A DNA stretch of 64,000 nt from Chrysomallon squamiferum (GCA_012295275.1 CM022677.1:25606001-25670000), one strand, 5' to 3'. Counted from the stretch's first letter, positions 7,701-10,700 are shown. Numbers and translations are program-made. Notes: a model not told the origin generated them from the letters alone.

Positions 7701-10700
7701 CTGTAGACATAGATAAGAATAATTAAATAGAGATTACTCTTTTTTGTTTTGATTAAACCTTTAATCACTGATAAAAAAAAGGTGAGAAAAAAATAAATAA
7801 GATAAACAAAAATGCAGTGTAGTGAAGTTTACAAAAATAAGATAAAATACAACATAATTAACAGAATTAATGTAATGTAATGTAATACAGTACAGTATAA
7901 TATAGTCTAGTTTAGTGTACTGTAGCATTGTATAGTGAAATGAAGTAAAAATAATAAAATGAAATGAAATAAAGTAAAATAAAAAGTAAAATAAAAATAT
8001 TGTAATATATAATATAAAATAGAATAGTAAATAAACATTAAAATAAAAATAAAATAATAAATTAAAATTAAAATAAAATAATAAAAATAAAAACCAGTAA
8101 CTTTGTTAATTCATTTGAGATTCACCTTTTCACCATGATTGGTTTTATTTTCATTTCTATTTTTTATTATTTATTTATTTATTGATTTATTTATTTATTT
8201 ATTTATTTTTTATTTTTATTTTTTTTAAGTCTGTGATTTGAGCTTTTCTATCAATGTCCATCCATTATATATTAGCATTTCTCTATTATCATTTGATTTC
8301 TCAAATACTTTTAGGTTTCTGTCCTCCCTTCACTCCTTTTTTTTTTTTATCATCAGTACACTATTCATATCCATTCATTCTGTAAACAGTTTTACTGTCA
8401 GACCAGTGTCAGTCATACTGTAGCATCTCTTGTACTACAGTGTTGTCAGAGCAACACATTGTGCCAGTGTCAGTCTTGTGTCAGATCAGTGTCATTCATG
8501 CTACAGTATTTGTCATACTGCAGTGATTTCAGATACAGACATACTGTGTAATTTTTTATTTCCTGTGAACGCTGAGTAAAAGATGACAGTAATTTCGAAT
8601 TAACTGTATTTATCACAAATTCCCATTAACCTCGAAGAGGCATTAATATCCATTGTTTGAAATGACAGGTCTATCTGGTCTATTACATAATGATTTCTTT
8701 CTTTCTTTCTTGATGAGCCATGTTTGATTATTATATCAGAGAGAGAGAGAGAGAGAGAGAGAGAGAGAGAGAGAGAGAGAGAGAGAGAGAGAGAGACAGG
8801 GAGAGATACAGAGAGGAGGGAGGGAGAGACAGACAAGAGGGAAAGAGAGAAAGACGGATGAAGACAGAAAGATAGAATAGAGAGAGAGAGAAAAAGAAAG
8901 AGACTATAATCTAAATGAAAATGTTGATATTTGAATAGTTTATAAATCTGTGCATATCTGTTAGTCTCCTGAACAAGAAATTTCAACAAAAAAAAAACTT
9001 CACCTCATCTCACGACATGTTACTGAATACAAATTTCATCTCTCTTAGGTCAGATAGTGTGAGAATGCATCAAGTCCAGACAGACAGACACACAGGCAGG
9101 CAGACATAATTAATACATACTGAATGAAGTATTCTTTTCTGTTAGTTTGGAAATCATGTATAGTTCATTGTATCAATAACGTTTTAATTTATTTTCTCAT
9201 TATTTTCTTTCTTAACTAATCAATTAATGTTTTAATGAATTTTTCTTTTATTCTGTAGTATATAGTATTATATATGTAAGTAAGTAAGTATCTGTGTGTG
9301 TGTGTTTGTGTTTACAGTGCATTTAATTCGAAGAATCATTTCTTAAAGATGTTTTTGAAAATGCACATGCACACATGAACACACACAAAAAGTCCTGATA
9401 TTTTATAATAGAAATTTTTGCATGCTTTCTCCATTTTGCTTTTTGTTCTGATTATCAACAGCTGTAGGGCTATATTTAATTTTATATTTATATTTATAGA
9501 TAGACAGATATATATACACACACATAATGCATATGCACACATGCATACAGACCAACACACACAGAGATGTATGTCTGTGTGTGTGTGTGTGTATGTGTGT
9601 GTTTATATATTTAGTTGAGTTCAAAATACCTAATGATTTTTATTTACAGTTAGAATGCTGCTTAGTTCTGTACACAAATATCACAGATAGTATTATTAAG
9701 TAGCTGTCTGTCCTTAAAGACTGAGAGTGATTCAGTGATTTCTTTAACTCCGACACTACACTGACAGTATACTGACAGTATGAACATGTCACTTACAGCA
9801 GTACCATTATGCAAATGGAAAAGAGATTTTTCTTTACATAGACTGATACATTTTCATCTTCAACTTTTTTCTTCTTTTTTTAAATTTTTTTTTTTTTTTA
9901 ATAAAAGGGCAGCAGCAGCAGTTAATCAAAAGTAATTTAAAAAAATAAAGAAATTAATTAAAATAAAGTAAAAGAAAAAAAGAAAAGAAAAAAAAGAAAA
10001 GATTAAAAGAAGAATTCAGCTGAACTAGATGATTACGCTTGCTTCCCTTTCAGTCTACTTAAGTACTGCCCCAACCCTGGCGGAGGCGGGGCAGCCACAC
10101 CCGACGACCCCCCGCACGGGTTAAAGGAGGGTCAGAAGCCAAAGACGGGTCCGTGCCGAGTTTGTGTGGATGCGTCGGGAGTCCCGGTCCTGGACACTGT
10201 GTGTCCTTTTCATGGGCGAAAAACATGCGGGTGTGTCCCTCCATTTTTTTTTTTTTTTTTTTTTTTTTTTTTTTTTTTTTTTTTGTTTTATTCCATTTTT
10301 ATTTTTATTTTTTTTTTTTCTTTCTTTTTTTTTTATTTTTTTTTTTTTTTTTTTTTTAATTTATTTTTTTTTTTTTTTTTTTTTTTTTATTATTTATTTA
10401 ATTTTTTTTTTTTTATTTTTTTTTATTTTATTTATTTGGTGTCTTGCTTTTGCTTATTTTTGGATAATTTGGTTCTTAACCCATTTTTTGTTTGTTTTTC
10501 ATTGTTATCATAACTCATGTCCTGTTGTTTCATAATTTATTTATGGGTCTAGTTTTTCATTTATTTATTTATTTATTCATTTATTCATTTATTCATTTAT
10601 TCATTCATTTTATTTTTTTTTTTTTTTTTTTTTTTTTTGTTCTTGGTGTCTTGTCTTATGGTATGTGGTTGTTATTACTGGTAGGGTAGTTGTAGTTGTA

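Follow-up and report, generated by a model that had tools for sequence, protein, structure and literature searches.

The accessible text of earlier work describes IRP2 (IREB2) as carrying a 73-aa insert that is called unique to this protein and whose function is largely unknown (PMC2854138, PMC2267205), and the insert is described there as unstructured (PMC2854138). Within it, Cys201 is a proposed heme ligand and Cys168, Cys174 and Cys178 are proposed iron ligands; the same source, in its accessible sections, reports that the degradation of IRP2 in response to iron can do without the insert and its cysteines and that heme binding was observed only in a truncated form of IRP2 and is contested (PMC2267205). 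IRP2 is further described, in the parts of these papers that are accessible, as lacking aconitase activity and as being degraded, under the control of iron, by a route that requires domain 4 and in which FBXL5 takes part (PMC2267205, PMC4112806). The segment in which the loop begins is also listed as a putative RNA-binding region in the accessible part of a study of the ark clam, where the long form of the protein SbIRP-1 binds the ferritin IRE in EMSA (PMC8947174). Our full-text search, whose reach left most subscription journals outside, returned no paper that ties an invertebrate insert to IRP2 or describes a splice choice. The include and skip isoforms themselves are already visible in RefSeq.

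We analysed a window of 64,000 nucleotides from Chrysomallon squamiferum (GCA_012295275.1, CM022677.1:25606001-25670000). It encodes a cytosolic aconitase of the IRP1 type at 1672..27116, on the plus strand, as are all exons and motifs of this gene placed below. We located 22 coding exons; the model begins past the start-codon exon and the first few N-terminal codons, and the stop (~27116) is placed from the last match. The open frames comprise 949 codons with and 890 codons without a cassette exon (10054..10230), or 946 and 887 codons with an alternative donor at 20253, which fits the homologues better. The DHS segment, the first Fe-S cysteine (ITSCTN, exon 19000..19147), the other two Fe-S cysteines (GYGCMTC, exon 20835..20919) and the IRP1-type catalytic motif GSGSSRD (exon 25756..25878) are present in the include and skip forms alike, in agreement with the initial annotation, which had stated that the host retains all three Fe-S cysteines and an IRP1-type GSSRD. 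Because the catalytic GSGSSRD is retained, we did not class the gene as IRP2. In a phmmer search, the closest relative scored higher against IRP1 (1288 bits) than against IRP2 (1174 bits). A quick tree on the core, which contains no IRP2 row and was used solely for this placement, sets the window protein beside that of the gastropod Gigantopelta (88% identity, SH-aLRT 100). Judged from its sequence, the host gene is of the IRP1 type and not an IRP2; the exon it carries, old and likely optional, is very likely a homologue of the IRP2 insert.

A few features of the gene models and of the window are listed here in their own right. Exon 18330-18458 has an apparent GC donor at 18459-18460 (AAG/gcaact), a choice that preserves the open frame. 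The beginning of exon 26304-26489 recurs ~230 nt upstream (26075-26132) as an incomplete and diverged copy, which has its own AG acceptor and runs into a simple repeat. Further downstream, a GC-rich, low-complexity frame of 936 codons without a stop (58502-61312) has no Pfam match and probably belongs to a different gene as one large exon. An Rfam scan of the window gave no match, IRE included. The Gigantopelta gene model lacks its N-terminus, and a repeated stretch (~residues 290-330) replaces one exon, probably through assembly or annotation error.

The cassette exon is 177 nt long, of phase 2-2 and free of stop codons in the window sequence, with a ttcag acceptor, a GG/gtgtgt donor and a GC content of 0.62 vs 0.27 and 0.22 for the introns on either side; its earlier description as a stop-free 177-nt phase 2-2 exon is confirmed. 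The constitutive exons upstream (4456..4593) and downstream (13861..13930) join in an open frame without stops both with and without the cassette, as had been claimed for the 4593-13861 join. Inclusion adds 59 residues net; the 60 letters first given for the insert peptide include the junction Ser, which is common to both forms. The loop is placed ~10 residues past the active-site DHS segment. It starts with PNPGGG (10070..10087), whose first Pro lies 16 residues past the D of DHS, the same as in human IRP2 (D127-P143), and ends with CPFH (10202..10213), whose Cys lies 16 residues ahead of the N of NQELEF, again as in human IRP2 (C201-N217). In the window insert, CP stands where IRP2 has Cys201, and a His follows at +3. 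A CxxC pair (10154..10165) forms together with CPFH the pattern C-x2-C-x12-C-x2-H, a candidate 3Cys-1His metal site. The donor (10231-10437 region) is a non-consensus gtgtgt followed by a 194-nt T-rich tract. In 18 of the 19 exon ORFs obtained from a search of representative sequences, read-through past the exon gives x-Val, which implies G at +5 and T at +6, the codon at +2 to +4 being other than a stop. This suggests that the cassette exon has a conserved weak donor; the count may be biased by ORF calling.

The RNA evidence consists of assembled contigs from four runs (X1-X4) of a single study, compared with the window over two short stretches; the 4.4-13.9 kb span contains long simple repeats. 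A 235-nt contig, found in all four runs, starts with the 29 nt at the 3' end of 4456-4593, runs through the complete cassette and continues over 13861-13889. Since it spans both inclusion junctions, 4593-10054 and 10230-13861 are present in 4/4 runs, which settles the inclusion side of the junction check that had been proposed. Contigs of the upstream exon stop at its last base (4593) in X1 and one base later in X2-X4. We take this extra base to be the T that starts both 10054 and 13861; the intron starts with G. A branch after that T would need a second spliced continuation, and from this branch pattern the cassette is very probably skipped in some transcripts of this species. Contig depths of 149.6, 45.4, 123.3 and 108.5 upstream vs 52, 13.1, 79.6 and 56.5 on the include arm correspond to a cassette inclusion of ~29-65%, a crude figure as contig depths are a poor measure. 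In run X1, a contig of depth 4.8 (4564-4635) extends beyond the upstream exon into intron sequence and represents pre-mRNA, retention or DNA. An assembly artefact or pseudo-exon was considered and rejected, given the inclusion contigs in 4/4 runs and the isoform pairs in other species.

The human IREB2 insert presumably has its own exon, as stated in the initial annotation. The IRP2 features given with it, GNSRD, PNPGGG, LCPFHLQP and five insert cysteines, are all found in the human IRP2 sequence (6vcd). This IRP2 chain aligns through the insert as one stretch, whereas IRP1 chains split in two. When 12 mollusc inserts were aligned without their flanks, 10 residues were invariant, namely PNPGGG and CPFH. 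The ten columns were defined from the mollusc inserts alone and then compared with human IRP2, in which 10/10 are identical; by shuffling the IRP2 insert composition, the chance of this is 4.5e-12 in place and 9e-9 for the ten residues anywhere in order. CP[F/Y]H is present in 82 of 89 distinct same-site segments, and in 81 of the 82 CPFH-bearing segments exactly 16 residues separate its Cys from the core Asn that follows, matching IRP2. The lamprey insert ends with LCPFHLQP, eight residues identical to human IRP2, and scored above 1994 of 2000 shuffles with an invertebrate-only profile; with the same profile the Daphnia insert was reached by 194 of 2000 shuffles, which is not significant. Same-site extra segments in the ACO1 proteins of three fishes (bichir, gar and piranha) were rejected as homologues, two scoring at chance with this profile and that of piranha having no score.

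A significant insert-only profile match to IRP2 had been set beforehand as a test of the homology, and it failed in the blind searches. Among 177,635 PDB sequences, two insert-only profiles did not retrieve human IRP2 with E up to 10, and their matches were those of chance only (tau PGGG repeats, catalase, collagen and moult hormone). The search of representative sequences gave 19 short ORFs that resemble single genomic exons, none of them vertebrate-like. The single window insert had no match in PDB, Pfam gave one chance match (E 0.069) and no meaningful family for the 12 inserts, and an ESM Atlas search with the insert gave no usable match. The include form exceeded the skip form by 39.5 bits in amphioxus and by 30.9 bits in lamprey when compared with IRP2; most of this gain is an avoided split penalty, given the 26-29 bits by which the include forms drop when compared with IRP1. 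The insert middle aligns weakly between invertebrates and IRP2. As the blind insert-only searches missed IRP2, the case for homology is carried by position together with the motifs at the two ends, and it is the position-constrained comparison, with its ten matching residues, that supports the homology first proposed. On this basis, we regard it as very likely that the invertebrate insert and the 73-aa insert of IRP2 are homologous. Of the elements said to be shared with the IRP2 insert (PNPGGG, CxxC, CPFH and a count of five cysteines), PNPGGG and CPFH stood. The match in five cysteines did not, and is probably a coincidence, because only the CPFH Cys is invariant among the 12 mollusc inserts, the CxxC pair being nearly so; with one to nine cysteines across CPFH-bearing inserts, we rejected it as evidence of homology.

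The cassette insert alone, used as a query, found the Gigantopelta aconitase (71% identity, E 6e-16), and a search with the region gave 15 mollusc proteins among 186 candidates listed. In a wider region search, of which the best 120 of 7981 matches were listed, inserts at the same site and ending in CP[F/Y]H were found among the listed matches in an annelid, a hemichordate, amphioxus and echinoderms, as well as in ticks, mites, spiders, a scorpion, crustaceans (up to ~296 aa) and lamprey. Also among these matches are same-site inserts of 27-28 aa in two cnidarians, a coral and Nematostella, whereas no insert was found in insect or myriapod proteins among the best 120 of 7981. The inserts range from 27 to about 297 aa, with a variable middle and fixed ends. 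Those of decapods and krill (~280-297 aa) are rich in Pro, Ser and Gln and have kept a CxxC close to their beginning and a terminal CPFH. PNPGGG is retained and CPFH lost in two species of Octopus, and the lamprey and Daphnia inserts are without PNPGGG. A 1482-aa Octopus vulgaris record of the same cluster, named both aconitase and pyruvate kinase, is probably an annotation artefact.

Long and short isoforms could be paired by name in 42 cases among the matches listed, mostly predicted RefSeq models and not cloned cDNAs. We flagged 39 of the 42 as clean and found further differences in three; the pair of Dermacentor variabilis, one of those flagged clean, was dropped as its forms differ at the C-terminus. 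This leaves 38 of 42 pairs that differ solely by the insert segment, from 36 species among the matches listed (two are second pairs). The species are 15 molluscs, three lampreys, one amphioxus, three corals, five echinoderms and, among arthropods, two ticks, two scorpions, three shrimps and two Daphnia. With include and skip pairs annotated in 36 species across animals, the alternative cassette first described is supported by annotation. The same-site inserts of corals, molluscs, arthropods, echinoderms and amphioxus support an origin in the cnidarian-bilaterian ancestor, before the vertebrate IRP1/IRP2 duplication; the insert had been claimed to predate that duplication, and turns out to be much older than was guessed. 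As a cassette counterpart was found from corals to lampreys, the loop that has been assigned to vertebrate IRP2 alone likely goes back to an early splicing option of one ancestral gene. The insert would then be an optional exon of great age, seemingly retained in cnidarians and bilaterians alike. Such deep conservation is unusual for a splice choice.

The cassette-bearing gene of lampreys has an intact GSSRD and three intact cysteines, with include and skip isoforms predicted, and the overall score of its protein is higher for IRP1 than for IRP2. At 16 sites chosen by eye, the lamprey protein has the IRP2 residue at seven (DFTG-I, PPG-T, VML-A, TC-V, P-S-FF, YG-A and M-T), sites at which human IRP1 has the residue found in the majority of the 198 invertebrate rows and of the fish ACO1 rows. 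Three sites that are derived in IRP1 still carry the ancestral residue in the lamprey protein, and at two or three it has the IRP1 residue. This suggests, as a lead, that the lamprey gene belongs to the IRP2 branch while still an aconitase by its motifs and with the exon optional, a putative intermediate toward IRP2. A 1998 paper, reportedly and going by its title, deals with two lamprey IRPs and may bear on this gene.

Our overall explanation, which we find somewhat more convincing than its alternatives taken together, is that the exon is included in some transcripts and likely skipped in others, so that one gene makes a plain enzyme and a looped form with a predicted Cys/His tag for metal or heme. 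Inclusion links 4593 to 10054 and 10230 to 13861. Skipping, annotated in the 36 other species, would here give a standard protein of ~890 aa. The included loop follows DHS, with PNPGGG at its start, CPFH fixed relative to the core and a variable middle. The Cys and His of CPFH, aided by CxxC where present, may bind heme, a metal or an Fe-S cofactor, and this ligand may adjust either the switch between aconitase and RNA binding or the turnover, in the long form alone; the chances that the insert binds such a ligand and tunes the long form in this way seem to us evenly balanced. The cell could then set the share of sensor-bearing protein through splicing. After duplication, the IRP1 gene would have dropped the exon and the IRP2 gene retained it, the lamprey gene being an apparent intermediate. 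The complete scenario, in which a cofactor sensor module has been spliced alternatively since the cnidarian-bilaterian ancestor, jawed vertebrates fixed the two forms as IRP1 and IRP2 and lampreys are intermediate, is tentative, and we would sooner doubt than assert it. If it is true, splicing of one aconitase gene is the means by which most animal groups adjust an iron/heme sensor.

The best surviving alternative, which we consider rather unlikely, shares the homologous and optional exon and differs in the role of the loop, which would be a docking module whose PNPGGG and CPFH recruit a ligase, kinase or scaffold and sense no ligand. This is consistent with the disorder that AlphaFold predicts for the loop, and with motifs fixed at both ends of a middle that varies about tenfold in length. 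In the accessible text of the respective papers, moreover, the IRP2 insert alters tumour growth with IRE targets unchanged (PMC2854138) and has a phosphorylation site at residue 157 (PMC10340119). However, conservation within the insert is highest for a Cys and the His at +3 from it, and in 43 of 96 distinct inserts the distance from a CxxC (or CxC) to the CPFH that follows is exactly 11 residues. Such a pattern is more typical of a cofactor site. The x11 spacing, the commonest one, is common to molluscs, the annelid, the hemichordate and amphioxus; a CxxC or CxC is found 8-17 residues before CPFH in 57 of the 96 inserts and is absent in 19. We favour a Cys/His cofactor tag over docking because CPFH is the most constant element and this spacing recurs. 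In AlphaFold models from shallow alignments (42 and 20 rows), the insert has pLDDT <50 in context and ~56 alone, so that a metal site gains no support from a predicted fold; this agrees with the description of the IRP2 insert as unstructured (PMC2854138).

In a second alternative, the long isoform would be a functional IRP2, without aconitase activity and degraded under high iron or heme, so that one gene makes both IRPs. The insert does adjoin the DHS segment of the active site and RNA contact; it is singled out in the accessible part of one paper as the chief structural feature that sets IRP2 apart from IRP1 (PMC2267205), and the 942-aa long form of the ark clam binds an IRE (PMC8947174, accessible text), which indicates that the insert does not block RNA binding. 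Set against this are the intact GSSRD and three Fe-S cysteines of the include form and the IRP1 residues that invertebrate proteins mostly have at diagnostic sites, a count that the window protein stands outside. IRP2 degradation, moreover, maps to domain 4 and not to the insert, according to the accessible sections of PMC2267205. We therefore hold this alternative to be improbable, and the phrase "one gene, two IRPs" of the initial annotation was overstated, since the include form retains GSSRD and the Fe-S cysteines and the IRP2 insert is reportedly dispensable for degradation. The weakest alternative, independent inserts at a tolerant loop with convergent motifs, would fit the silence of the blind profiles on IRP2 and the unrelated same-site segments in a few fish ACO1 gene models, but is hardly credible given ten of ten invariant residues at identical offsets in IRP2, a distribution that is continuous via echinoderms, hemichordate, amphioxus and lampreys, and the eight consecutive residues around CPFH that lamprey and human share.

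The exon is a clean candidate for splice forms that were divided between duplicate genes. Conservation highlights CPFH (human Cys201 and His204) and next PNPGGG, and not the three central cysteines. The isoforms are natural matched pairs with and without the insert in a background that is aconitase-competent by its motifs, down to the 27-aa version of a coral, and the effect of the insert is therefore measurable without the other changes of IRP2. Studies of invertebrate IRPs that used one cloned form may have overlooked the other.

The protein encoded in the window can be compared with four known systems. It shares with IRP1/ACO1 (2b3x and 3sn2) the core sequence, the three Fe-S cysteines, GSSRD and DHS, but the IRP1 chains are without the 59-aa insert of the long isoform. 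The 3Cys-1His metal sites resemble the inserts, which often read C-x2-C-x11-C-x2-H, by sequence only. We take this Cys/His pattern to be like that of 3Cys-1His zinc or NEET-type sites. SbIRP-1 of the ark clam is a cloned IRP of 942 aa with a segment (Ser138-Gly189) absent from vertebrate IRP1; in the accessible text of that paper, this segment is linked neither to IRP2 nor to splicing, and IRP2 is stated to be missing from the clam genome (PMC8947174). With IRP2 (IREB2, 6vcd) the window protein has in common the insert site, the offsets of PNPGGG and CPFH, a composition rich in Cys, Pro and Gly, and predicted disorder. IRP2 differs in having a longer insert of 73 aa, the window insert being shorter and likely optional; in having C168-x5-C174-x3-C178 where the window insert has CxxC; and in having GNSRD and other derived residues where the window protein has an intact catalytic serine. 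As for the Cys-Pro heme-regulatory motif of IRP2 (Cys201), the CP of the window insert appears to be homologous to Cys201-Pro202, with a His matching His204, and is a candidate motif of the same kind.
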